NCBI RefSeq assembly: GCF_003044035.1
Contig: NZ_NVQC01000012.1
Span: 2,030 to 34,029, forward strand
Direction of reading: 5' to 3'
Source: Candidatus Methylomirabilis limnetica
GTDB taxonomy: Bacteria; Methylomirabilota; Methylomirabilia; Methylomirabilales; Methylomirabilaceae
Length of the DNA: 32,000 nucleotides
A program made the translations under genes and the position numbers. Every line of letters begins with the position of its first letter. Position 1 is the first letter of the stretch. Below the pieces are notes generated by a model that ran no database searches, was not told where the DNA came from, and saw only the letters and a program-made list of their open reading frames with translations. This document shows positions 1 through 30,953 of this stretch, one piece after another.

Positions 1-329
1 CACCGCAAGCGCAATGCCGCATCGTAGATATCCTGCTGGTCGCGATAGCGGCCGACTCCCACTTGCCAGAGCACGCGACTGGCAAGCCTGCTCCACAGGT
101 TGATCGTGTACACCAGGTCGAGCCTGCCTTCGAACGCGACGCCGCCGTCGGTGGCGCGCGCACTCTTCGCGCCCAGTTTCTCCAGTTCCACCGCAAGCCC
201 TGCTTCCAGTCCGCGCGGGCAGGTGGCAAAAAAGCACTCTTCGCCGGTGGCGGCCCCGCGTAGCGGCGCCCACGCGGGTTGCGCCTTCGAATCCCGGGCT
301 GAATACCTAGAATGGCTTGAGGACGACAA
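1..329 (-). CDS. THUMP-domain SAM-dependent RNA methyltransferase (RlmL/RlmK-like), N-terminal part; the gene runs off the left edge
   Basis: My own - strand translation reads ...ECFFATCPRGLEAGLAVELEKLGAKSARATDGGVAFEGRLDLVYTINLWSRLASRVLWQVG..., a typical THUMP N-terminus. The only in-frame start upstream of FFAT is TTG at 329, with an in-frame stop at 333-335, so the start is uncertain. Confidence 0.55.
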   Translation of the reverse strand, partial: MSSSSHSRYSARDSKAQPAWAPLRGAATGEECFFATCPRGLEAGLAVELEKLGAKSARATDGGVAFEGRLDLVYTINLWSRLASRVLWQVGVGRYRDQQDIYDAALRLR

Positions 330-363
330 GGATCACCACCATAAAAAGAATCGTCAAAGTAGC

Positions 364-560
364 GATGAACCCGCCTCTTCGCGGTGGCCGCTCTGTCATC
401 GTACGCATTCTAATCGCTGTCGTTCCAAAAGACCCTTGGCGATCATTCCCTCGTTGCCTCACATGGTACGGGTGGCCGGGTGCAACGGTTCAGGTAACCC
501 GTGGCATGCACGATCATGACCGCGAACACCACGAATCGTTGCGATAATAGTGTCTGTCCC
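364..560 (+). repeat. Copy A (5'-truncated) of a ~200-nt conserved repeat family; candidate structured RNA / MITE
   Basis: Aligns by eye at roughly 80-85% identity to 1462-1676 and 3005-3204. It ends in gataatagtgtctgtccc followed by TA. Confidence 0.85.
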
Positions 561-640
561 TATTTAAATCGCAGATGCCACCGGCGCAGACCGGAATAGC
601 AAATGATGGCACTACGGCAGCCGCTGTGATATAAAGCCGC

Positions 641-1387
641 ATGCTTACGACCATGGAGCGCAAAGAACTGATAGCACTGCAGGGTAAGAAGGAGCGCCAG
701 AGGCGCGGGCTATTTCTCGTGGAGGGCGTAAAGCTCGTGGAAGAGCTGCTTCAGTCGAGATGGGAAGTGGAACGTATCTTTGCCGTTGAGACGTGGAGCC
801 CGGGACGAAAGACGCGCGCGCCAGTGGTGCGCATCGGGGACAATGAGCTGGAGCGAGTGTCGGCCATGGAGGCACCAAACCAGGTTCTTGCTGTCGTGCG
901 CATTCCGAAAGCTGCTCCAGCACCGCCACCGGAAGGACTGGTTCTAGCGCTGGCAGGACTCCGCGATCCCGGCAACATGGGGACCGTCCTCCGGATCGCA
1001 GACTGGTTTGGCGTGTCACGAGTTATCTGCTCACTGGACTGTGCCGAGCGTTTCAATCCAAAGGTTGTCCAGGCAAGCATGGGTTCCATCTTCCGGGTAC
1101 CTGTGCACCGGCAAGACCTTGCCGGATACCTTGGCGATTGCGCAAAGCACGTTGAGATCGTCGCCGCCTGCGCGGCTGGCGGTGAGAACCTGTTCGTCTT
1201 GACGCCGCGTGAGCCTGCCGTGGTGATTCTTGGCAGCGAAGGTCAAGGCATACCTGACGCCCTGATGTCGCATGTGCGCTGCCGCATGACCATCCCGCGC
1301 GCAGGTCATGCGGAGTCGCTCAACGTCGCGGCCGCAGCCGCAGTAGTCTGCGCGGAGTGGAAGCGCGCGGCGCTATCACGCATGTAG
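641..1387 (+). CDS. TrmH/SpoU family RNA 2'-O-methyltransferase (RlmB/YsgA-like)
   Basis: 248-aa ORF with SpoU motifs: GLRDPGNMGTVLRIADWFG, VILGSEGQGIP, IPRAGHAESLNVAAAAAV. Confidence 0.9.
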   Translation: MLTTMERKELIALQGKKERQRRGLFLVEGVKLVEELLQSRWEVERIFAVETWSPGRKTRAPVVRIGDNELERVSAMEAPNQVLAVVRIPKAAPAPPPEGLVLALAGLRDPGNMGTVLRIADWFGVSRVICSLDCAERFNPKVVQASMGSIFRVPVHRQDLAGYLGDCAKHVEIVAACAAGGENLFVLTPREPAVVILGSEGQGIPDALMSHVRCRMTIPRAGHAESLNVAAAAAVVCAEWKRAALSRM

Positions 1388-1461
1388 TGCCTCAGAAGGT
1401 GTGAAGAAATACGATCGGATCTGCTGAGCTTTAACAGCCATGTGCCCGAGGCGGTCTATTT

Positions 1462-1676
1462 TCCTGCGCACCTCCCAGATGAACCCGTCTCTTCGCAGTA
1501 GCCGCTCTGTCATCGTGCGCCTCCGAATCGCTGTCGTTCCGAAAGGCCGCCTGGCAATAACTCCCTCGTTGCGTCACATGATACGGGTGGCCGGATGCAA
1601 TGATTCGGGTAATTCGTGGCAGGCACGGGTCATGACCATAACCACCACGAATCGTTGCGATAATAGTGTCTGTCCC
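1462..1676 (+). repeat. Copy B (5'-truncated) of the ~200-nt repeat family
   Basis: Same conserved blocks and orientation as copies A and C. It ends in ctgtccc followed by TA. Confidence 0.85.
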
Positions 1677-1720
1677 TAATTTTAAAGTATCTGAGCCTGT
1701 CCCGCAAACTCTCGTTCACC

Positions 1721-1796
1721 CTTCGACGCGCTCAGGGCGAACGGTATGGGCATTGAAAAGAAAGATGTTTTTCCATTCGTGCTGAGCCCGTCGAAG
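1721..1796. repeat. Imperfect palindromic REP-like element
   Basis: Arm cttcgacgcgctcagggcgaacgg (1721-1744) is the near reverse complement of ccattcgtgctgagcccgtcgaag (1773-1796). Confidence 0.6.
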
Positions 1797-1814
1797 CACA
1801 ACAAGGGGTTTGTA

Positions 1815-1833
1815 GGACAGGCTCATCTGTCCC
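1815..1833. repeat. Mini element made only of the two terminal-repeat tips of the repeat family, TA-flanked
   Basis: The sequence reads TA ggacag gctcat ctgtccc TA. These are the same tips (ggacag / ctgtccc) and the same TA flanks as copy C. Confidence 0.5.
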
Positions 1834-1880
1834 TATTTTCTGGAAGGTCAGCTCCGGGGCCTTCTTGCGCTTGGGCATAG

Positions 1881-2084
1881 TCAACGCTCCCGAGGCCTGA
1901 TGCGATACTCCGGCGGGGACTCCCGTAAGGTCGCGCCGTTCTGTTGCCTGGCCGCTTCGCGAATCGTGCGCATCCGATCTCGCAACGCGTCGAGCATCGC
2001 GAGTTTCTCCACTAAAGGAAGAGCGGTCAGATTCCGGCGAAGCGCCCGCTTGCTGTCGAGAATCCTTTGGAGGTCGAAGCTCAT
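1881..2084 (-). CDS. Hypothetical 67-aa protein, translationally coupled to the upstream gene
   Basis: The ORF start overlaps the stop of 2081-2572 in an ATGA arrangement. The sequence is predicted helical and charged. No family recognised. Confidence 0.5.
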   Translation of the reverse strand: MSFDLQRILDSKRALRRNLTALPLVEKLAMLDALRDRMRTIREAARQQNGATLRESPPEYRIRPRER

Positions 2085-2572
2085 GTCCCGCTCTGGAGGA
2101 AGGTTCTCTCAAATTCGCGCCACCGATCAACGAGTCCGTGCCGCGCCAGGATGGCCTGAAAACGTTTGGCCTCCAGCGCGTCGGCCTCGACGAACTGGAG
2201 TAGCCGCGCCTTGTCTTTGGCCCGGCCGGTCTGCAAAGCGATCGCCGCGAGATGCTCCGCCGTCAAGACCCACGCTGCCGTGCCTTCCACGTCCACAGTC
2301 ACGGCCTCGGCCAGCGCTTCTTCCACCAGCGGACCTGTGGGCGGCAGAAACTGAACGGGCCATCCGGCAATAACGATGTATTCGCCCTCGACAACGCCGC
2401 CCCGGGCCGTGAGGTAATCGAAGATGGAGCGCGGGCTGATCAGGACCTGGCGGGGTTGTTGTTTAAACCCGACGAAGATGTCCACGTCCAGCGTGGCCAC
2501 CGGTTCGAGGTAAAACGTCGCGCCCACCGCCCCGCCAATGGCGTAGCGCTCCACGACCCTGTCGGTCTCCAT
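2081..2572 (-). CDS. Hypothetical protein, possibly nucleotidyltransferase-fold
   Basis: METDRVVERYAIGGAVGATFYLEPVATLDVDIFV... resembles minimal nucleotidyltransferase cores (GG...D.D). An alternative GTG start at 2608 would add a helix-turn-helix-like VSIARVISIINQ. The long N-terminal extension in the ORF track is low-complexity read-through. Confidence 0.5.
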   Translation of the reverse strand: METDRVVERYAIGGAVGATFYLEPVATLDVDIFVGFKQQPRQVLISPRSIFDYLTARGGVVEGEYIVIAGWPVQFLPPTGPLVEEALAEAVTVDVEGTAAWVLTAEHLAAIALQTGRAKDKARLLQFVEADALEAKRFQAILARHGLVDRWREFERTFLQSGT

Positions 2573-2649
2573 CTGATTGATGATACTGATGACGCGGGCA
2601 ATGCTCACGGCAAGGTCCTTTCCGATGGCCGAAAGTGGAGCGCCCGCTG

Positions 2650-2797
2650 CAAGTCCGCCTCCGTATCCGCCGCTGTCCGGTGACGCATTCGTGGACCAGG
2701 GACTTGCGGTAGGCGACGAACACTTCGATCTGGCGCTCAATTCCACGCGCAACCTGTCGCACTTCGCCGAGCTTCTTGTCGAGATAATAGGTAATGG
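2650..2797 (-). pseudogene. C-terminal remnant of a type I restriction-modification specificity subunit (HsdS)
   Basis: ITYYLDKKLGEVRQVARGIERQIEVFVAYRKSLVHECVTGQRRI matches the conserved HsdS C-terminal helix pattern (..YLD.K...ID....I..L.EYR.SLI..AVTGKIDV). Upstream TRDs are absent and the stop is lost. Confidence 0.45.
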
Positions 2798-2904
2798 GCC
2801 TATGCACTTCACTCAACTGCCCGCAACTGACTGCACTTGGTGCGCATCTCGCACTCAATATGTTGTGGTAAAACCGGCGTCGGTTGATTTAAGTGCATAG
2901 GCCC
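2798..2904. mobile_element. 107-bp MITE-like element with 14-bp terminal inverted repeats
   Basis: gggcctatgcactt (2798-2811) and aagtgcataggccc (2891-2904) are perfect inverted repeats. They are flanked by the direct repeat aataggtaat on both sides. Confidence 0.5.
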
Positions 2905-2918
2905 AATAGGTAATAATA

Positions 2919-3204
2919 GGGACAGACACTATTTATTGAAATCCTTTCTTGGTCTTCCCTCTGCAGTACGCGTTTTACTCGTCCCAGTTATCCTGCTCAC
3001 TTCCCAAATGAACCCATCTCTTTGCAGCGGCCGCTCTGTCATCGTGTACCTTCGAATCGCTGTCGTTCCGAAAGACCGCCTGGTGGTCATTCCCTCATTG
3101 CGTCACATGATACGGGTGGCCGGGTGCAACGATTCGGGTAATCCGTGGTATGCGCGATCATGACCGTACACGCCATGAATTGTCACGATAATAGTGTCTG
3201 TCCC
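2919..3204 (+). mobile_element. Copy C: complete 286-bp member of the repeat family (MITE-like)
   Basis: Perfect 15-bp terminal inverted repeats gggacagacactatt (2919-2933) and aatagtgtctgtccc (3190-3204). TA lies on both flanks (2917-2918, 3205-3206). Confidence 0.8.
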
Positions 3205-3206
3205 TA

Positions 3207-3540
3207 TTTTATGGAGTTCAAGAGGTTCCAGGTCAGTCTCGAGATCCCCAGGTCGCACACGCACTTCGCGCTCATGCTCCCCGGATACGGCCGGAACGTC
3301 GAAGAGGCCGTCCCTGCTCACGCGAACCCGCTCGGCGTACGCGAAGGCGAGCCCTGCACGTGACGTCGCTAGACGTTCGAGAAGCGCGTCAGGATCCCTA
3401 TCCCGGAGCATCACGCCACGCTTCCCCACCGAGAAGTAGAGGAGTGCGTTGCGCCGGTCGAGTTGCAGCAGTCGGGTCTGCCACTGCCGAATCGCCTCGA
3501 CGACTACTTGCTGGCGCGACTTGCTGCTCACAAGCACCAC
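3207..3540 (-). pseudogene. N-terminal fragment of a DUF4011-type superfamily I helicase, truncated by copy C
   Basis: WQTRLLQLDRRNALLYFSVGKRGVMLRD is the DUF4011 N-terminal signature. The reading frame runs straight into the repeat terminus (LELHKIGTDTIIV is the translated TIR). Confidence 0.55.
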
Positions 3541-3777
3541 CTCCGTACGCTACTCCGCCCAGTGGCTTTACCGACACGCCTTTTGCTCACCGTGAGCAAG
3601 CCACGCCGATGGCGTCGGCGACGTCCTGCAAGAAATGAAACCCGAATCCTGACATCTGGCCGCATGCGGGGCCTGAAGGCGCCTAACGCTAGGTTTCAGC
3701 CGCACCTGGAAGCCAGAGCGAGGCGCGAGCGGAGGCTGGAAGACGTCGGCCGCAAACCCTTGTTCGACTGTGTCTGG

Positions 3778-4179
3778 CTAGGGAAAAAGGCCGAGGCGCA
3801 TCCACTGCTGCCGGGCCGCGACCTGGGCCGTGCTGTTCATCCCCAAGCGCACCACTGTTGTCCTACCGCTCGGGGTGAGCCCTTCGATCTCTCCGCTCTC
3901 GGCAGCGATGCGGAAATGGTCCTCCCACTGGTCCTCCCGCGGGTGGAACAGACGGACAACCACATGGCTCTCGGGATCATTGCCGCTGACGTGCGTGGCC
4001 TTATAAAGATTGCAGGCGCGGCAGGCCAGCGCCCAATTCGCGGCAGTATCGTCGCCGCCCCGGGAGACTGGCACAATATGTTCGACTTCTAGCGGCAGGT
4101 TGAAGACGGCTTCCGGCGCGTGGCAATACTCACACCGATGGCCAGCCCGGAGCGCCACCTGCGTATAGTGCGGGTTCAT
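3778..4179 (-). CDS. Small HNH endonuclease (133 aa)
   Basis: HRCEYCH ... EVEHIVPVSRGGDDTAANWALACRACNLYK: an HNH motif with two Cys pairs. Confidence 0.85.
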   Translation of the reverse strand: MNPHYTQVALRAGHRCEYCHAPEAVFNLPLEVEHIVPVSRGGDDTAANWALACRACNLYKATHVSGNDPESHVVVRLFHPREDQWEDHFRIAAESGEIEGLTPSGRTTVVRLGMNSTAQVAARQQWMRLGLFP

Positions 4180-4538
4180 CGCCCCAAGGCGTCAGCCAAT
4201 GTGGCAGCTCGCGCTGCTGCTGCGTGCAACTCCGCTTCGACGAGCGCTTCCAGCTCGGTCTGCTCGTCCATAGACAGCGTATACCCTTGGTCTCGCACGG
4301 TCCGCCAGCGCTCCATCAGTGCGGAAAGGCTCTGTTGTTGGGCTGCAGTGAAGAACCGATCCGAGCGCAGACTTTGCACGATGACCAGCGTGCTCGTCTC
4401 GTCCGCAGATAATTGCGCTGTGAGCGCGTCTAACGCTTCCCCCACTGTTTTGCCCTCGGCGTGCTTTGTACCAGCGATGGCACAGTAGGAAAGCTCGCCG
4501 TGCCCCGCTGGGATAGGCAAGATGGCTACCTTTGTCAT
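4176..4538 (-). CDS. Hypothetical 120-aa partner of the HNH endonuclease
   Basis: AGGAGG Shine-Dalgarno 8 nt upstream. Its stop overlaps the HNH start (ATGA at 4176-4179). The C-terminal half is helical (QQQSLSALMERWRTVRDQG...EALVEAEL). Confidence 0.7.
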   Translation of the reverse strand: MTKVAILPIPAGHGELSYCAIAGTKHAEGKTVGEALDALTAQLSADETSTLVIVQSLRSDRFFTAAQQQSLSALMERWRTVRDQGYTLSMDEQTELEALVEAELHAAAARAATLADALGR

Positions 4539-4756
4539 AGTGACGACCTCCTACTGGCCATTGAAAGGCGTTCAAGCCGTACTTTCCCTTAGGCTGTAGC
4601 CTAACGGTATTGAGTGGGCTGGTCAGTCTAGCTCTGTTACAACCTGTTAACGTTAGACGAACTAGTCGAACAGCCGCGTCTCGCGGTCATAGCGCCGGTG
4701 GCACTGCGGCTCCTCGTAGGGTGAAATAATGATAAGACAGTCGATAATGGCGCTCA

Positions 4757-4942
4757 CTATTCGGTATCCCAAGCCAGGGTCATGCCTTCCTGCGCTAGCG
4801 CTGTTCGTACGGTGTGCCGCACGAGTGCAGCGATCTCGATCGCATGGCGTGCCTCCTCTTCGGTTACTGCCTGGTCTTCACCGGGATAGCGCGCCGTGAT
4901 CGCAAATGGGGTGAGTTCTTCTGCTTCATGGAGGGCTTCCAC
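4757..4942 (-). pseudogene. C-terminal half of a HEPN-domain protein (partner of the MNT gene)
   Basis: ITARYPGEDQAVTEEEARHAIEIAALV matches HEPN C-terminal helices. Only 61 codons are open, from a GTG immediately after an in-frame TAG. The N-terminal half is missing. Confidence 0.5.
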
Positions 4943-4965
4943 CTACCACCTTTTGCCGAATCACT

Positions 4966-5286
4966 TCATCGGGGACGCTCATAAAGCACCTTCCCTTCCA
5001 GGGAGGCCGGGCGAGCTACGGTGCCAGGAATATCACGGTCGCGCTCGAACTCCTCAGGGGTGATGACCACTACGTCCCGCGCAAACCCCAAACCGGCGAG
5101 CGCCCGATCCATCGCTACCATCAGTGACCGGCGACTGCCTGTCAGCGGGCATACCACCAGGAGATCGACGTCGCTTCGCTCATCAGCCGTTCCCCGCGCT
5201 TGCGAGCCAAATAGAATCACGCGGTGTGGTTTAAATTGAGCGACCAGACGATCCCTGGCTTGATTTAATACTTGCTCGCTAATCAT
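4966..5286 (-). CDS. Minimal nucleotidyltransferase (MNT family antitoxin-like)
   Basis: From internal ATG: MISEQVLNQARDRLVAQFKPHRVILFGSQARGTADERSDVDLLVV. This is the GS...D.D nucleotidyltransferase motif. Confidence 0.8.
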   Translation of the reverse strand: MISEQVLNQARDRLVAQFKPHRVILFGSQARGTADERSDVDLLVVCPLTGSRRSLMVAMDRALAGLGFARDVVVITPEEFERDRDIPGTVARPASLEGKVLYERPR

Positions 5287-5552
5287 CTCCCCCTCGCAAC
5301 TTTCAGATTCCTGCGCACACGCTAACTGAGACTGCCGTAGAAGCCGAGACGAGCTCGGACGAACTCCAACTCGGCCTTCAAGGGACTCAGCCTCGCAACT
5401 GAGTCTTGTCAAGCAGGTTAAACATAGCTCGGTTGACACGGGTGTCAAGCAAAATGAAACCGTTAGAACAGCAAAGGATCAACTAGAACACACGACCCTG
5501 TGCGACGATCGGGCTTGCGGCAGACGCTGCCTTCTGGCAGAATAACGGCACG

Positions 5553-8418: not shown

Positions 8419-8494
8419 CGGAAGGTCCCGCCTGTCAGCTTCGTGAGGAGCACCGATACTCCTCTTTGCCCTGCCTGAACGAGGCCCTATAAAA

Positions 8495-8533
8495 AACAAG
8501 AAGGAGGTCCCGCATCAGGACCTCCTTCTTGTT
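8495..8533 (-). terminator. Intrinsic terminator of the first 95-aa gene
   Basis: Perfect 16-bp stem aacaagaaggaggtcc / ggacctccttcttgtt with a 7-nt loop, followed on the - strand by TTTTTTAT. Confidence 0.8.
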
Positions 8534-8557
8534 AAGAACCGCCGTAGCGCCTGAGTC

Positions 8558-8845
8558 TTACTCGATTATCTCGAGGACCCGACTCGTGACATTAGTGGCA
8601 ATCTGCATGAGCTCACTGCGAAGCGCCTTGCGCTCATCAAGGACCAATATTTTATCGAGGTTGCCGAAGTTGCCTATCTCAATCGTAATGATTCGCTCCA
8701 CCGAAGCAGCCAAGTGGTCCCCGAAGATGTGAAACCTCGAAACCCCTGGCTGAGCAAGCCAGAACTTCTTCATCTTATCACGCAAGAAGTTATCCAACTC
8801 CTCTTCTCGCTTTGGGTCAACTTCACACAAGATGTGATAAACCAT
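8558..8845 (-). CDS. Hypothetical 95-aa protein, paralog 1 (beta-alpha-beta pattern, ferredoxin-like / dimeric alpha-beta barrel guess)
   Basis: The ORF has a strong Shine-Dalgarno (aaggagagg), its own terminator, and an intact paralog 558 bp away. Confidence 0.8.
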   Translation of the reverse strand: MVYHILCEVDPKREEELDNFLRDKMKKFWLAQPGVSRFHIFGDHLAASVERIITIEIGNFGNLDKILVLDERKALRSELMQIATNVTSRVLEIIE

Positions 8846-8952
8846 TGTACCTCTCCTTTCACACCAGATTAAAGTTGCGACAGCCTGCTCATCATCCTCG
8901 CGCGCTCAGCCCCTGAAAAGGCCCAACAAAAACACAAAACCTTTGCGGAGGT

Positions 8953-8997
8953 ACAATTGCACGAAGGACAGCTTGTTGTCAACCAAATTACGGTTGG
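8953..8997 (-). promoter_or_regulatory. Candidate sigma70 promoter plus palindromic operator for paralog 1
   Basis: The - strand reads ccaaccgtaatttggTTGACA-18 nt-AATTGT, with TG just upstream of the -10. The palindrome CCAACC-N6-GGTTGG overlaps the -35. The arrangement is conserved at 9513-9557. Confidence 0.4.
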
Positions 8998-9052
8998 CTT
9001 GTCTTGTCAGACCCCTCTCATGATTCCTATCGTCGCCTGAACGAGGACCTAA

Positions 9053-9091
9053 AACAAGAAGGAGGTCCCGCATCAGGACCTCCTTCTTGTT
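9053..9091 (-). terminator. Intrinsic terminator of the second 95-aa gene
   Basis: The same 16-bp stem as 8495-8533, followed on the - strand by TTTT. Confidence 0.75.
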
Positions 9092-9115
9092 AAGAGCCGC
9101 CGTAGCGCCTGAGTC

Positions 9116-9403
9116 TTACTCGATTATCTCGAGGACCCGACTCGTGACATTAGTTGCGATCTGCATGAGCTCACTGCGAAGCGCCTTGCGCTCATCAAGG
9201 ATCAAAATCTTATCGAAGTTACCGAAGTCGCCTATCTCAATCGTAATGATTCGCTCCACCTTATTAGCCAAGTGGTCCCCGAAGACGTGAAACCTCGAAA
9301 CCCCTGGCTGAGCAAGCCAGAACTTCTTCATCTTATCACGCAAGAAGTTATCCAACTCCTCTTCTCGCTTTGGGTCAACTTCACACAAGATGTGATAAAC
9401 CAT
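9116..9403 (-). CDS. Hypothetical 95-aa protein, paralog 2
   Basis: Starts at the internal ATG (MVYHILCEV...) with the same Shine-Dalgarno as paralog 1. It has 6 aa differences, clustered in residues 40-67. Confidence 0.8.
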   Translation of the reverse strand: MVYHILCEVDPKREEELDNFLRDKMKKFWLAQPGVSRFHVFGDHLANKVERIITIEIGDFGNFDKILILDERKALRSELMQIATNVTSRVLEIIE

Positions 9404-9512
9404 TGTACCTCTCCTTTCACACCAGATTAAAGTTGCGACAGCCTGCTCATCACCCCCACGCGCTCGACCTCTGAAACGGCCCAACGGAAGCACAAGACCC
9501 TTTTGTGCGGGT

Positions 9513-9557
9513 AGAATTGCACTAAGGGCGACTTGTTGTCAACCAAATTACGGTTGG
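9513..9557 (-). promoter_or_regulatory. Candidate promoter/operator for paralog 2
   Basis: Duplicate of 8953-8997: TTGACA, an 18-nt spacer, AATTCT, and the same CCAACC/GGTTGG palindrome. Confidence 0.35.
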
Positions 9558-9795
9558 CCTGTCTTCTCACGTTGTTCATCGGTTCCCTTAGGAGGCGTCA
9601 AAAATCAACATTTACATCCACCAAAGCAACAAACCCCCTTGTATCCCCCTTTTGTAAAGGGGGAAGTTGCTGGAGAGGTTGTGCGAGATTGCAATCTAGT
9701 TAATGCTCCCCGTAATATATTGTCGCCTTTCATCTCAAGATGTAAGGCAGGCTCATGAGCGAGGTCTCTCACGCCGAGTTGTCGCGACTTTCCGC

Positions 9796-24732: not shown

Positions 24733-25404
24733 GTGTCCAGACGAGCTCGCACCAGACTGAAGAGCGCAGTGTGGGGCGTTGCGCTATTACCCCTACTGCT
24801 TCTCCTGTATCGGTTCCTTACCGATCGGCTCGGCCCCAATCCGATCTCGTACGCCACTAACCTGCTCGGCGACACCACGCTCCGACTGCTGCTCGCCAGC
24901 CTTGCCCTGACGCCCCTTCGTATTCTGTTTGGGATCGCGTGGCAAATGAGCCTGCGGCGTCTGCTGGGATTGTTCGCGTTCTTCTACGTCTGTCTCCACT
25001 TCACCGTCTGGATCGCGGTAGACCACTTCTTCGACTGGGGGCAGCTCGCAGCCGACATCGTCAAGCGGCCCTACATCACCGTTGGCATGCTCGCCCTGAC
25101 GCTACTGGTGCCGCTTGCCGGCACTTCCACATCAGGAATGGTGAAGCGTCTGGGGGGCAAGAACTGGCGGCGACTGCACAGGCTGGTCTACGTCATCGGT
25201 CTGCTCGCCGTGCTGCATTACCTGTGGCTGGCCAAGAAGGGCGTGAACGACCCGTATCTCTACGCCGGGGTGCTGGCCGTCCTGCTGAGCATTCGCCTGT
25301 GGGACTTGGCTCGACGCAAAGCTTGGTTGGGCTTTCCGACATGGCGTCGTGGAGGGAATTCTCCGACAAGGACCGCCAATGAAATGCGTGGAACGTCTAC
25401 TTAG
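24733..25404 (+). CDS. msrQ: Protein-methionine-sulfoxide reductase heme-binding membrane subunit (YedZ)
   Basis: GTG start just after the msrP stop. Multi-TM protein with conserved His residues (CLHF, VLHYLW). The last ~36 codons lie in the 95-bp repeat. Confidence 0.85.
   Translation: MSRRARTRLKSAVWGVALLPLLLLLYRFLTDRLGPNPISYATNLLGDTTLRLLLASLALTPLRILFGIAWQMSLRRLLGLFAFFYVCLHFTVWIAVDHFFDWGQLAADIVKRPYITVGMLALTLLVPLAGTSTSGMVKRLGGKNWRRLHRLVYVIGLLAVLHYLWLAKKGVNDPYLYAGVLAVLLSIRLWDLARRKAWLGFPTWRRGGNSPTRTANEMRGTST
25295..25390 (+). repeat. Direct repeat, copy 1 (msrQ 3' end)
   Basis: Roughly 83% identical by eye to 27072-27165. It contains the hairpin cgacgc...gcgtcg. Confidence 0.8.
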
Positions 25405-27071: not shown

Positions 27072-27165
27072 GCCTGTGGGACTGGGCGCGACGCAAAGCC
27101 TGGTTGGGATTTCAGGCATGGCGTCGTGGAGGCCATTCGCCGACAAGGACCGCCGATAAAATGGG
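27072..27165 (+). repeat. Direct repeat, copy 2
   Basis: See 25295-25390. Confidence 0.8.
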
Positions 27166-28003: not shown

Positions 28004-28120
28004 TTCGGATGTTCACGAACACAGATTGGTCCGGTGCCCTGAGTTCAACGGAAGCCTGGCCAAGGGGGAACCTATACGGCTCCATGTCGTGCACATGCTG
28101 CCAATTGCGGATTTCGGTCC

Positions 28121-28290
28121 ATCGTGAACGCCAGGATCACTTCATCGTGAACGCGAAGATCACTCGATCGTGAACGCCGGGATCAGCCATCGTGAACACG
28201 TAGATCGGTATCGTGAACACGTAGATCGGTATCGTGAACACGCGGATCGGTATCGTGAACACGCGGATCAGTCATCGTGAACACGTAGAC
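28121..28290 (+). repeat. Eight tandem 21-23-bp repeats (atcgtgaacRc...) inside the IS21 left end
   Basis: Repeat starts are at 28121, 28144, 28167, 28189, 28210, 28231, 28252 and 28274. Confidence 0.9.
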
Positions 28291-28393
28291 AACCCCCGGG
28301 AAATCGGCGACCCTTACTCCCATGAGCGGGTGCCGAGAGCAACAGCGACGTTGGATGGTCCAGCGCGCCATTCCGCTCCAGGAAGGAGTGGCA

Positions 28394-29938
28394 ATGGCGA
28401 CCGAGCGACTACCCATGCGTCAGATCCGAGAGATCCTCCGCCAGAAGTGGACCCTGACCCGTAGCCACCGGCAGGTGGCCTCTAGCCTCGCGGTCAGTCT
28501 TGGGACCGTGACCGGCGTCCTCCGCCGGGCAACCCACGCCGGGCTTGACTGGCCCCACGTCCAGACCCTGACCGATGACGCCCTGGAGATCCGTCTCTAC
28601 GGCGCACCAGCCACCCCCGGGGTGACCCGCCCGCTCCCCGATTGCGCCTACCTGCACACCGAACGACGCAAGCCCGGGGTGACGTTAGAACTGCTCCACC
28701 TCGAGTACCTGGAGCAGCATCCCACCGGCTACCGCTACACCCGCTTCTGCGATCTCTACCGCCGTTGGCTGGCCCGCCATCGCCTCACTATGCGCCAGGA
28801 CCATCGAGCCGGCGAGAAGATCTTCGTCGATTACGCCGGGCAGAAACCGACCCTCGTCGATCCCACCACCGGCGTGGTTACCGAAGTAGAGCTCTTCGTC
28901 GGTGTCCTCGGGGCCAGCAACTACACCTACGCGGAAGCCACCCGCACCCAGCGGGTCCCCGACTGGCTCGGGAGCCATCAGCGACTCCTGGCGTTCATGG
29001 GCGGGGTGCCGAGCGCCATTGTCCCGGACCAGTTGAAGACCGGGGTCACCGTCCCTTGCCGGTACGAGCCCGGCCTGCAGAGGACCTACGAAGAGTTCGC
29101 CCAGCACTACGGCACCACGATCCTCCCCGCCCGGCCGGCGAAGCCACGGGACAAGGCGAAAATCGAAGTGGCCGTGCAGATCGCCGAACGGTGGATCCTC
29201 GCCCGACTCCGGCACGAGGCGTTCGGCTCGCTAGGAGCCCTGAACGCCCGGATCTGGGAACTGCTCACCGCCCTGAACAGCCGCCGAATGCGCTCCTACC
29301 AGGCGAGCCGCCAGGAGCTGTTCGAGCGGCTGGACCGTCCGGCGCTCCGGCCCTTGCCCCCGGCGCCCTTCGTCTACGGCGAGTGGAAACTCGCCCGCGT
29401 GAACATTGACTACCACGTGGAACTCGACGGCCACTACTACTCGGTGCCCCATGCTCTGGTGCACGAACGAGTGGACGTCCGCAGCACGGCCATGACAGTG
29501 GAGATCTTCCACCACGGCCAGCGAGTGGCCGCCCATGTCCGCAGCATTTCCCGCGGGCGGCACACCACCCTTACCGCTCACATGCCCAAGGCCCACCAGC
29601 AGCACCGGGAGTGGAGTCCCTCTCGGCTCATCGCGTGGGCCGAGACCGTCGGGCCGCAGACCGCCGCCCTGGTCGAGGCCATCCTGGCGAGCCGCCCCCA
29701 CCCGGAGCAGGGCTACCGGTCGTGTCTGGGGATCCTGCGCCTCGCGCGGCGAGATGGGCCCCTGCGGCTCGAGGCGGCGTGTACCCGGGCACTCGCAGTG
29801 GGCGCGCGCTCCTACCGGCACGTCGATGCGATCTTGAAGCACGGACTCGACCGTTCTCCAGTGCCGGACGCCGGTTCAGTCCCCACTGCCCGCCCGGTCA
29901 TCCACGACCAGTTGCGCGGGCCCACCTACTATCAGTGA
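28394..29938 (+). CDS. istA: IS21-family transposase
   Basis: ATG 5 nt after GGAAGGAG. N-terminal HTH (MRQIREILR), DDE region (FVDYAG..., ...VPDQLKTGV) and the typical IstA length. Confidence 0.9.
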   Translation: MATERLPMRQIREILRQKWTLTRSHRQVASSLAVSLGTVTGVLRRATHAGLDWPHVQTLTDDALEIRLYGAPATPGVTRPLPDCAYLHTERRKPGVTLELLHLEYLEQHPTGYRYTRFCDLYRRWLARHRLTMRQDHRAGEKIFVDYAGQKPTLVDPTTGVVTEVELFVGVLGASNYTYAEATRTQRVPDWLGSHQRLLAFMGGVPSAIVPDQLKTGVTVPCRYEPGLQRTYEEFAQHYGTTILPARPAKPRDKAKIEVAVQIAERWILARLRHEAFGSLGALNARIWELLTALNSRRMRSYQASRQELFERLDRPALRPLPPAPFVYGEWKLARVNIDYHVELDGHYYSVPHALVHERVDVRSTAMTVEIFHHGQRVAAHVRSISRGRHTTLTAHMPKAHQQHREWSPSRLIAWAETVGPQTAALVEAILASRPHPEQGYRSCLGILRLARRDGPLRLEAACTRALAVGARSYRHVDAILKHGLDRSPVPDAGSVPTARPVIHDQLRGPTYYQ

Positions 29939-29963
29939 ACCGATACACAGACAGGAGAGAGAC

Positions 29964-30704
29964 ATGCTCAGCCCCCCGACGATGGAGACGCTCCACGCTC
30001 TGAAGCTCACCACTTTGGCGGCCGCCTGGACCGCCCAGCAGCAGGACGCTGCTATGAGCCAGCTTGGCTTCGACGAACGCCTCGGCCTTCTGGTCGAGGC
30101 CGAGTGGCTCGCCCGGGAGAACGCCCGGTTCACCCGAACCCTTAAGACCGCCAAACTGAAGCTCAGCCAGGCGTGTCTTGAGGCGATCGAGTACCCGGCC
30201 CGGCGGGCACTCGACAAGGCCCTGATCCGCCAGCTCGCCACCGGTCGCTGGATCGCCGAGCATCAGCACGTGCTCATCAGCGGGGCGACCGGGACCGGGA
30301 AGACCTTCGTCGCCTGTGCTCTGGTCCACCAGGCGTGCCGGCAAGGGTACCGGGCCCTCTACTGGCGTCTCTCCCGACTCTTCCATGCCTTGGCCCTCGC
30401 GCGGGCTGATGGGACGTACGCCCGGCTCCTCGCGACGCTGGCCCGGGTGGACGTCTTGCTCTTGGACGACTTCGGCCTGGCCCCCCTGCAGGAGGCCGAA
30501 CGCCGCGACCTCCTGGAGATCCTGGAGGACCGATACGGCACCCGCTCGACGATCGTCACCAGCCAATTGCCCCCGGCGCATTGGCATGAGGCGATCGGAG
30601 AGCCGACCCTCGCGGATGCTATTTGTGATAGACTCCTTCACAACAGCCACCGTGTCATGCTACAAGGACCCTCACAGCGAAAGGAGAAGAAGCTCGAAGC
30701 CTAA
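29964..30704 (+). CDS. istB: IS21 helper ATPase
   Basis: Walker A GATGTGKT and Walker B VLLLDDFG. Ends in the typical IstB ICDRLLHNSHRV. Confidence 0.92.
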   Translation: MLSPPTMETLHALKLTTLAAAWTAQQQDAAMSQLGFDERLGLLVEAEWLARENARFTRTLKTAKLKLSQACLEAIEYPARRALDKALIRQLATGRWIAEHQHVLISGATGTGKTFVACALVHQACRQGYRALYWRLSRLFHALALARADGTYARLLATLARVDVLLLDDFGLAPLQEAERRDLLEILEDRYGTRSTIVTSQLPPAHWHEAIGEPTLADAICDRLLHNSHRVMLQGPSQRKEKKLEA

Positions 30705-30730
30705 CGGACTCCCAGCGTCGCTTCGCTTCC

Positions 30731-30784
30731 GTTCACGATGACCGATCTGGGTGTTCACGATGGAGCGATCTAGGTGTTCACGAT
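30731..30784 (-). repeat. Three inverted copies of the same repeat in the IS21 right end
   Basis: gttcacgat at 30731, 30753 and 30776. Confidence 0.85.
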
Positions 30785-30953
30785 GAGTGAAATGCGCAGC
30801 CAATCATCGACCCGACTATTTTCCGAGTCTATTCACGCCCAGGAAAACCAATAGTTGTCAACTACACCTTCATGCCAGTTTTACGGTGCGCACCCGGTAA
30901 CCTTCGAAGTCGAGGTGAAAAACCGCGCGAACCGATGCGGAACAAGCGCAGTC

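Follow-up and report, generated by a model that had tools for sequence, protein, structure and literature searches.

Three repeats upstream of leuCD in Candidatus Methylomirabilis limnetica as probable miniature derivatives of a TIRtron

In a 32,000-nt stretch of the genome of Candidatus Methylomirabilis limnetica (contig NZ_NVQC01000012.1, positions 2,030 to 34,029; this whole stretch is called the window), a conserved element of about 200 nt occurs three times within 3 kb, always in the same orientation. What is this repeat, and what put three copies of it there? The preliminary description of the window had reported the three co-oriented plus-strand copies from the letters alone, and a repeat search and a three-way alignment bore it out. 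The copies, here called A, B, and C, are 83-90% identical to each other in the repeat search. Mean column identity in the three-way alignment is 79% with the flanks counted in, and every invariant block listed earlier was found in it. A 20-mer, GATAATAGTGTCTGTCCCTA, and a 21-mer, TCACATGRTACGGGTGGCCGG, occur three times each versus 0 times expected from shuffled sequences. The explanation that we favor, and hold to be very probable, is that the three copies are pseudogenized derivatives of a TIRtron resembling MITEs (small transposable elements with inverted repeats), which spread through Methylomirabilota and were presumably mobilized in trans. By TIRtron we mean here a unit of about 750 nt in which a single gene for a transposase of about 225 amino acids (aa) of the Y1/HUH type lies between terminal inverted repeats (TIRs) of about 20 nt with the core ATAGGGACAGACACTATT.

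The extent of the copies was set with an nhmmer profile built from full-length relatives. An exact scan with GATAATAGTGTCTGTCCC, using one genome per species, returned 15 loci, mostly in metagenome-assembled genomes (MAGs) of Candidatus Methylomirabilis and many of them at contig ends, and a profile search found six further full copies among species-representative loci. Alignment of the full copies shows that the complete element is about 300 nt long and is bounded by ATAGGGACAGACACTATT on the left and its complement on the right. The three copies lie where they had been placed, except that copy C reaches about 95 nt further left than position 3005. It is complete, while A and B lack the left 80-100 nt. 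The gene sense of all three is the minus strand:

364-567, minus strand: copy A, a one-ended relic (profile positions 101-305) with the TIR at the gene's 3' end missing
1454-1684, minus strand: copy B, a one-ended relic (profile positions 77-306) with the TIR at the gene's 3' end missing
2914-3209 (profile match 2912-3215), minus strand: copy C, a complete non-autonomous element of about 300 nt with both TIRs (profile positions 7-309)

A wider scan of metagenomes with the terminal 18-mer gave at least 120 loci, and open reading frames (ORFs) were clustered over 135 listed loci (L numbers below). The commonest ORF near the motif, at 32 of the 135 listed loci and a median of 17 nt away, encodes a protein of about 225 aa that starts with MPRIARIV.PGYPHHVTQRGN. 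It matches Pfam Y1_Tnp (PF01797) with E values of 1e-12 to 1e-17. REP_Tyr_transpos (NF047646) is its best NCBIfam model, at 59-78 bits versus a cutoff of 80, and the IS200 model NF033573 gives 17-31 bits versus a cutoff of 55. In the alignment, the proteins are 222-232 aa long and have NHVH at 59-62, WQ, YVERNP at 119-124, and WSS. The gene sits in full-length TIR-gene-TIR units of about 750 nt (L121 4861-5607, L063, L041, L067, L028, and L151). In the intact units the motif is located 55-57 nt upstream of the ATG, with an inverted copy over the stop codon; the ancestral stop TAG is within AAATAGTGTCTG. At E<=1e-20, the large intact family comprises 7955 proteins. Clustering at 90% identity puts one member (P0241) in a cluster that is 91% identical to the L121 protein and includes proteins annotated as transposases from Ca. 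Methylomirabilis limnetica, oxyfera, and oxygeniifera, and the L151 gene, also of the Methylomirabilis lineage, is flanked by slightly degenerate TIRs. A search of plasmid DNA gave no match, and plasmid proteins matched at 39% identity or less, annotated only as transposases. A different Y1-transposase subfamily (MPRANRHFLSGYVWHLTHRCHH..., MPRRPRIHFDGAPLHIVQRGHN...) is represented by fragments or genes within a few kilobases of ~300-nt elements (L008 3374-3955, L055 6676-6915, and L107 4776-5081).

The relation between the short elements and these units is simple. Intact units align to the profile of the short element in two stretches, 7-155 and 150-307, with about 450 nt between them, and the consensus of the short element is 92% identical to L121 at 9-156 and 90% identical at 612-757; a single 455-nt deletion therefore accounts for the element. 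The deleted 455 nt correspond to residues ~33-182, with the HUH motif (NHVH) and the catalytic tyrosine motif. All contiguous ~300-nt copies, 30 matches representing 28 distinct sequences, have the same junction. Copy C is 85-88% identical to both ends of L121, and the parts of the ancestral unit can be followed through the window copies:

3190-3207, minus strand: TIR of copy C at the gene's 5' end, exact 18-mer ATAGGGACAGACACTATT
2916-2933, plus strand: TIR of copy C at the gene's 3' end, exact 18-mer, containing the stop codon in full-length units
3056-3151, minus strand: copy C remnant of transposase codons 1-32 (IPRITRIVAPGHPYHVTQ*GNDHQAVFRNDSD), tblastn with the L121 protein, 78% identity, E 3e-12
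2944-3060, minus strand: copy C remnant of transposase codons 183-221 (AIRRYTMTERPLQRDGFI...GRPRK), tblastn, 62% identity, E 5e-8
3054-3062, minus strand: copy C deletion junction, AACGAC / AGCGATTCG in gene sense
3157-3186, minus strand: copy C putative degenerate sigma-70-like promoter of the ancestral transposase gene, GTGACA-18-CATGAT, from a consensus scan and a consensus match only
1662-1679: TIR of copy B, 1 mismatch
1476-1622 and 1448-1531: copy B remnants of residues 1-49 and 183-210 (tblastn)
546-563: TIR of copy A, exact
394-507 and 352-423: copy A remnants of residues 1-38 (with a stop) and 181-204 (tblastn)
1827-1838, plus strand: TIR tip with its tail (CTGTCCCTATTT), standing alone some 150 nt beyond copy B (5 matches versus 0.08 expected)

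On the left side of copy C, an inverted copy of the terminal block is found at 2917-2936. Its N-terminal remnant has lost the start codon and contains an in-frame stop, and its C-terminal remnant is in another frame. When intact proteins were used for tblastn against the window, only N- and C-terminal residues (1-32 and 183-221) were recovered, in differing frames and with stops or lost starts; nothing beyond the three copies matched, and no intact Y1 gene was found in the 32 kb. The earlier remark that no transposase is attached to any copy thus holds for intact genes in the window but misses that the element is itself the remnant of one. The plus-strand ORFs (317-547, 1440-1679, and 2936-3163), which had been dismissed as the repeat translated, are indeed meaningless: 1-base indels break the frame between copies, and the ORFs are antisense to the gene remnants.

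The copies are dispersed. The flanks of the 28 distinct full copies are unrelated, and the window copies are 88.7-90.5% identical to foreign copies and only 84.5-86.0% identical among themselves. As each of them has its nearest relatives among foreign copies, we take them as independent insertions. The SpoU-family methyltransferase gene that lies between A and B was met in six independent short-read assemblies, which end inside these two copies, as is expected of a dispersed repeat. No copy-specific direct repeat at both flanks, that is, no target-site duplication, was found for the 28 copies, as expected for HUH single-strand transposition; the only conserved flanking bases, shared family-wide by the 28 copies, are GGRWTATA at one flank and TATTTT at the opposite one. 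The break points of one-ended copies vary (profile positions 77, 95, 101, 125, and 141), so there is no fixed alternative end. Some copies of this NC10 (Methylomirabilota) element were on contigs binned as Bifidobacteriaceae or as a "Patescibacteria" MAG (SMAG_U13113), namely, L012 (7848-7903), L004, L007, L008, and L014; these are probably mis-binned repeat-ended contigs rather than true hosts.

The copies decay like neutral sequence, with neither coding nor RNA constraint. Deviations at the three codon positions number 96/92/61 in the N-terminal part and 39/31/33 in the C-terminal part, with no excess at third positions, and transitions and transversions among copies number 473 and 256. The consensus has an open frame of 73-74 aa that ends at the TIR's stop codon, and 3 of the 28 distinct full copies keep it. 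One subterminal block, CTTGGTCTTCCCC, has 8 deviations in 15 columns versus 22-59 in other internal windows of the ~300-nt copies. It was considered as a cis site acting at the DNA level but is not claimed as one here, since in divergent full-length units these codons (GRPRK) differ at synonymous positions.

The course of events that we propose starts from one ancestral 455-nt internal deletion, which would have removed the catalytic core and left both TIRs, the promoter and 5' leader, codons 1-32, and the last ~40 codons. The resulting ~300-nt derivative would then have multiplied and reached many places in the genomes of Methylomirabilota. As the agent we presume an intact transposase encoded elsewhere in the genome and acting in trans on single-stranded DNA, as modeled on the IS200/IS605 and REP-associated enzymes (REP, repetitive extragenic palindrome); both the action in trans and the single-strand mechanism we infer from the enzyme superfamily. 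Several hints are consistent with a single-strand mechanism: the missing target-site duplications, a small hairpin in the consensus TIR, a 19-bp TIR-TIR panhandle that single-stranded copy C can form, and the co-orientation of the copies, which strand-biased insertion may have caused. For IS200/IS605, orientation bias is expected from single-strand transposition. With both ends kept, copy C could in principle be mobilized, and copies A and B, with the gene-3' end lost, would be immobile relics.

Some points weigh against this explanation. Enzymatic activity is not known to have been demonstrated for the transposase subclass concerned, and whether such enzymes move DNA has been unclear in the literature (PMC5581495 and PMC6006769). 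A five-member profile of the protein resembles solved HUH transposases marginally, with E values of about 0.02-0.03, and the weak matches are to the structures expected for such a protein, E. coli TnpA-REP (4ER8) and IS608 TnpA (2A6M/2VHG). The intact transposase was found in related genomes only and not in the genome of the window. The exact ends of the element are undefined, as target-site duplications are not visible. Neither a transposition event nor an empty site nor an excision product was observed; a search for empty sites through homologues of the SpoU methyltransferase and LeuC gave no precise one, the fetched orthologous regions of relatives not being collinear. Most loci were gathered by exact TIR match, so TIR conservation looks inflated. 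Copies A and B each lack one end, and insertion as fragments and later truncation both fit.

By motifs and length in the alignment, the transposase would be assigned to TnpAY1 subclass 2.1, with which it matches in NHVH, WQ, Y..NP (YVERNP/YVELNP), a proximal WSS, a length of ~225-235 aa, a conserved C-terminal tail, and a wide and patchy taxonomic spread. That subclass is defined by NHVH or NH[YF]H, W[EQ], YIELNP or a Y[IV]HLNP-like motif, SS, and a C-terminal domain, at a median length of 238 aa (Quentin et al. 2018, PMC6006769), and it corresponds to Group 1 of the REP-associated tyrosine transposases (RAYTs) (Bertels et al. 2017, PMC5581495), which is equated with TIRYT/TIRtron. No REP-like sequences were seen beside subclass 2.1 genes (PMC6006769), whereas here a TIR stands at fixed distances by every sampled gene and has dispersed derivatives. 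TIRtrons were described as RAYT-like genes flanked by TIRs that share GGGGWSAS and can form repeat families (Di Nocera et al. 2013, PMC3733652). The units found here agree with this: the partner is a Y1/HUH enzyme (HuH, Y..NP), long TIRs unrelated to GTAG REPs bracket its gene (L121, L063, L041, and L151-L156), and the TIR is a moderately abundant repeat, present as singles, dimers, and clusters. Its ATRGGGACAG is comparable to the published motif, and in many copies it fits GGGGWSAS as ATGGGGACAG. The difference is that the window holds no gene but a ~300-nt deletion derivative with coding remnants, itself multiplied.

As in classical bacterial MITEs, which derive from DDE insertion sequences, the element is small, transposase-less, intergenic, and present in multiple copies at different sites, and it shares its ends with an autonomous partner; copy C has both TIRs, and A and B keep only the gene-5' TIR. 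Unlike in classical MITEs, the partner is an HUH tyrosine enzyme rather than a DDE enzyme, and target-site duplications are not detectable. Miniature derivatives are also known for IS200/IS605 (PATEs and similar), which are non-autonomous and keep only the ends. IS200/IS605 elements belong to the same Pfam Y1_Tnp superfamily and likewise show no target-site duplication. Their ends are dissimilar subterminal hairpins with no inverted repeats, whereas the ends here are inverted repeats and the protein stays far below the cutoff of the IS200 model. A clear match to a described MITE had been named beforehand as a refuting outcome. The element is MITE-like, but a published description of this particular element was not found: literature using the term TIRtron contained no internally deleted, amplified derivative and no Methylomirabilota family, and a literature search with the motif string gave unrelated primer matches only. 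It is an ordinary kind of genome parasite, of a family not described before.

The TIR has a life beyond the ~300-nt element. Its core, which reads ATAGGGACAG or ATGGGGACAG with an exact GGGG in only part of the copies, gave at least 244 matches in at least 136 sequences. Paired TIRs are spaced by ~273 nt (the long form), ~99 nt (a 121-nt short form), or 25-100 nt (near-palindromes), and the TIR also occurs solo and in tandem (tandems in L057 and L103). In a sample chosen by protein only, with members from Scalindua (62% identity), an Omnitrophica type (59%), Desulfobacterota (57%), Nitrospirae/Manganitrophaceae (76%), and Methylomirabilota (91%), all five have one TIR that begins 55-57 nt ahead of the ATG and a second that overlaps the stop codon. 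Four of these five units keep the core GGGACAGAC[AG]C; the Omnitrophica type carries GGGACAGCGAC, with both ends changed together. Apart from this variant, the ~18-nt end is near-invariant across NC10, Nitrospirae, Planctomycetes (Scalindua), and Desulfobacterota, while the proteins are 57-76% identical.

Directly abutting the gene-5' TIR of L121 (4883-4919), L151 (1466-1503), and L156 is a promoter-like pair, TTGACA-17-TAATGA (consensus matches only), whose -10 box ends 6 nt before the ATG. Such an arrangement points to a transposase mRNA that is leaderless or nearly so, and possibly to autoregulation through TIR binding.

The tip of the TIR is reiterated outside the elements. The tail, CTATTTT, occurs 33 times in 28 of the 221 outside flanks listed, versus 1.7 ± 1.4 in shuffled sequences, and its reverse complement occurs 8 times in the same flanks. 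These tip-plus-tail reiterations are strand specific and about 20-fold over shuffles (seen at L152-L156, L077, L026, and L002), and they covary with the element's own tip: CTTGTTTTC four times in Scalindua, GGCATAAATAGG four times in the Omnitrophica type, and GAAAATAGGGACA three to four times and CTATTTTCTTT four times in Nitrospirae. They seem to be generated by the elements themselves.

Methylomirabilis-type MAGs also have a second non-autonomous family, of 121 nt, with the same TIRs and an unrelated interior:

L013 253-373 and 3893-4015; L009 6506-6628; L004 7851-7972; L011 4036-4154: elements of the 121-nt family

A DUF123 (GIY-YIG-like, PF01986) gene, or the first ~30 codons of one, comes after the 121-nt element in L013 (twice) and L009, as though element and gene had been duplicated together. 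L013, with inverted TIRs 3.7 kb apart, had been considered as an autonomous element; it consists of two separate short elements.

Since a Y1 enzyme and scattered short repeats also characterize REP/REPIN-RAYT systems, the repeats could instead serve the host, with the TIRs and the ~300-nt elements kept as terminators, mRNA stabilizers, or protein-binding sites and TIRYT as a domesticated caretaker. We consider this improbable as the explanation of the window copies, although it is not exclusive of the TIRtron-derivative explanation and could hold beside it. In both cases an HUH Y1 gene lies between inverted short repeats, the repeat is scattered singly, in tandem, and in inverted pairs with a close spacing of 25-100 nt, and movement in trans is presumed for the non-autonomous units; among NCBIfam models, that of the REP-associated transposase fits the protein best. 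Copy B begins 67 nt past the stop codon of the methyltransferase gene, and the TIR end of copy A is 76 nt upstream of its ATG (641), so that one gene has a copy directly on either side. For RAYTs in general, a case for domestication has been made (PMC5581495). The consensus TIR folds into a small hairpin of -4.4 kcal/mol (z -7.6), but the TIR hairpins in the window are weak, at -0.6 to -2.4 kcal/mol, and no better than shuffles. The TIR has neither the GT[AG]G tag nor the G+C-rich stem of REPs, its only palindrome being the A+T-rich AAAATAG/CTATTTT with a 9-nt loop, and the protein scores below the NCBIfam cutoff. Terminator-like sites were not called inside the copies. The window element is a deletion derivative of a whole gene unit and not a REP doublet, two of its three copies are truncated, and the ~300-nt copies decay as neutral sequence.

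The preliminary description had read the mosaic of invariant blocks and variable stretches as typical of a structured RNA or a protein-bound DNA element. A structured noncoding RNA gene or cis-regulatory RNA in three copies is, in our judgment, very improbable. The blocks are accounted for by the TIR (gataatagtgtctgtccc), the reverse complements of ancestral codons (tcacatgRtacgggtggccgg for PGHPYHVT and gccgctctgtcatcgt for HTMTERP), the deletion junction, which aatcgctgtcgttcc spans, and a -10-like box (tcatgacc). There is an 11-nt complementarity, GCAACGATTCG / CGAATCGTTGC, that encloses the ancestral start codon and pairs in 85% of cells (35 copies) versus 20-46% with the partner slid. Covariation in this hairpin of the untranslated region and start is not above shuffles, however, and its central pairs are broken in 15-21 of the 35 copies. 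The folds are unremarkable, with z-scores of -1.3, -0.6, and -0.6 for the plus strands of the three copies, and RNAalifold on the 35 copies in gene sense gave -7.95 kcal/mol with a covariation term of -0.31. As the preliminary description had asked, the repeats were compared with Rfam; they have no match at the gathering threshold or at E<=10, and elsewhere in the window the gathering threshold gave only a tRNA.

Could the three copies be a local matter, a segmental duplication or integron-attC-like repeats that bound cassettes at this one locus? All of them are in a flexible island upstream of leuCD. The host of the window belongs to Methylomirabilota (NC10). The LeuC encoded in the window shares 87% identity with a protein of a Ca. 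Methylomirabilota MAG, and its other named matches are from NC10 or Methylomirabilales. Homology with relatives begins only ~40 nt upstream of leuC, so we take 1-5510 of the window as a variable island. At the same place, relatives have other toxin-antitoxin genes, IS21/Mu-like transposases, or a type I restriction system, and the stretch looks like a hotspot for flexible islands. Its other genes are as follows:

Between copies A and B: SpoU/TrmH methyltransferase gene
1881-2084 and 2081-2812, between copies B and C: two-gene pair with no family assignment
3778-4179: HNH gene
4757-4942 and 4966-5448: HEPN and nucleotidyltransferase pair
Within 1-5510: DUF4011 fragment

The island is rich in toxin-antitoxin-like genes, and co-oriented copies 1.1-1.5 kb apart bracket single genes or pairs. 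Co-oriented pairs 1.0-1.5 kb apart occur at other loci too, around genes that we judged by sequence reading to be HigB/HigA-like, PIN-like, and YaiI-like. Besides all window copies, the copies at six other multicopy loci are co-oriented, of which L077 and L072 share a homologous spacer and are not independent. GC skew, tried as a replication-strand test of orientation, was too weak and gene dependent. We give a local origin next to no credence. The copies occur in many unrelated contexts and genomes, as had been expected earlier of a dispersed multicopy element rather than a local duplication, the window copies are not each other's closest relatives, and the repeats are remnants of a transposase gene. 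Inspection of the ends found no GTTRRRY/RYYYAAC core sites, and a scan of the window for Y1 homologues found nothing else, no search having been aimed at an integron integrase.

Equally hard to credit is a small-protein family, such as a transposition regulator made from the minus-strand 73-aa ORF that fuses the transposase N and C termini, for although the consensus can be read without interruption from the ancestral ATG as far as the TIR's stop codon, changes show no third-position excess, and a lost start, a stop, or a frameshift is found in most copies and in each of the three window copies.

Several other features of the window were noted. Two lie next to the copies. At 2785-2915, abutting the left TIR of copy C, is a unit of ~130 nt with 33-nt inverted arms (TAATAGGTAATGGGCCTATGCACTT..., 82% complementary), whose tips hold AATAGG as the TIR tip does and of which no second copy was found in the window or the collected loci. 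Beyond copy B, at 1688-1845, is a unit of ~145 nt with inverted ends (TGAGCCTGTCCCGCAAAC / GTTTGTAGGACAGGCTCA), unique among the collected loci; it has an internal hairpin at 1721-1796 with a chance-level match to mir-1912 and is followed by a terminator-like GGACAGGCTCATCTGTCC plus CTATTTTCTG with the solo TIR tip inside.

Further away, an IS21-family insertion sequence at 28107-30786 contains an IstA-like ORF (28322-29938; Mu-transpos_C_2, rve) and IstB (29964-30704; IstB_IS21, E 9e-70), flanked by 21-23-nt ATCGTGAACACGTAGATCGGT repeats, which number about 9 at 28107-28315 and form an inverted set at 30731-30786. At 8493-9608, in a low-GC stretch (0.526), a segment of ~558 nt is duplicated in tandem, with 8493-8792 and 9051-9350 at 95% identity and 8942-9009 and 9502-9569 at 85%; each unit opens with a perfect 39-nt palindrome, AACAAGAAGGAGGTCCCGCATCAGGACCTCCTTCTTGTT, and the ORF 9116-9493 in it has no Pfam match. 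Finally, a 92-nt direct repeat is found at 25295-25386 and 27072-27163, 88% identical and 1777 nt apart.

For the window, this analysis removes a candidate novel structured RNA, and it explains the assembly breaks in these genomes. For the family, the shared junction of a deletion derivative present at no fewer than 28 distinct sites gives good comparative evidence for movement of TIR-bounded DNA by enzymes of the largest RAYT-like group. The value for mobile-DNA biology is modest. A further idea, which we put forward tentatively and think somewhat more doubtful than probable, is that TIRtrons, which have been treated as REP-less and possibly domesticated, are an active, horizontally spreading transposon class. 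If so, the ~300-nt element would be the first clear MITE of the class and direct evidence for mobilization in trans, and the tip reiterations in the flanks would be footprints of the cleavage-joining chemistry, marking the cleavage or target site. The positioned TIR, the promoter-like pair that abuts it, and the tip reiterations offer concrete substrates for biochemistry.

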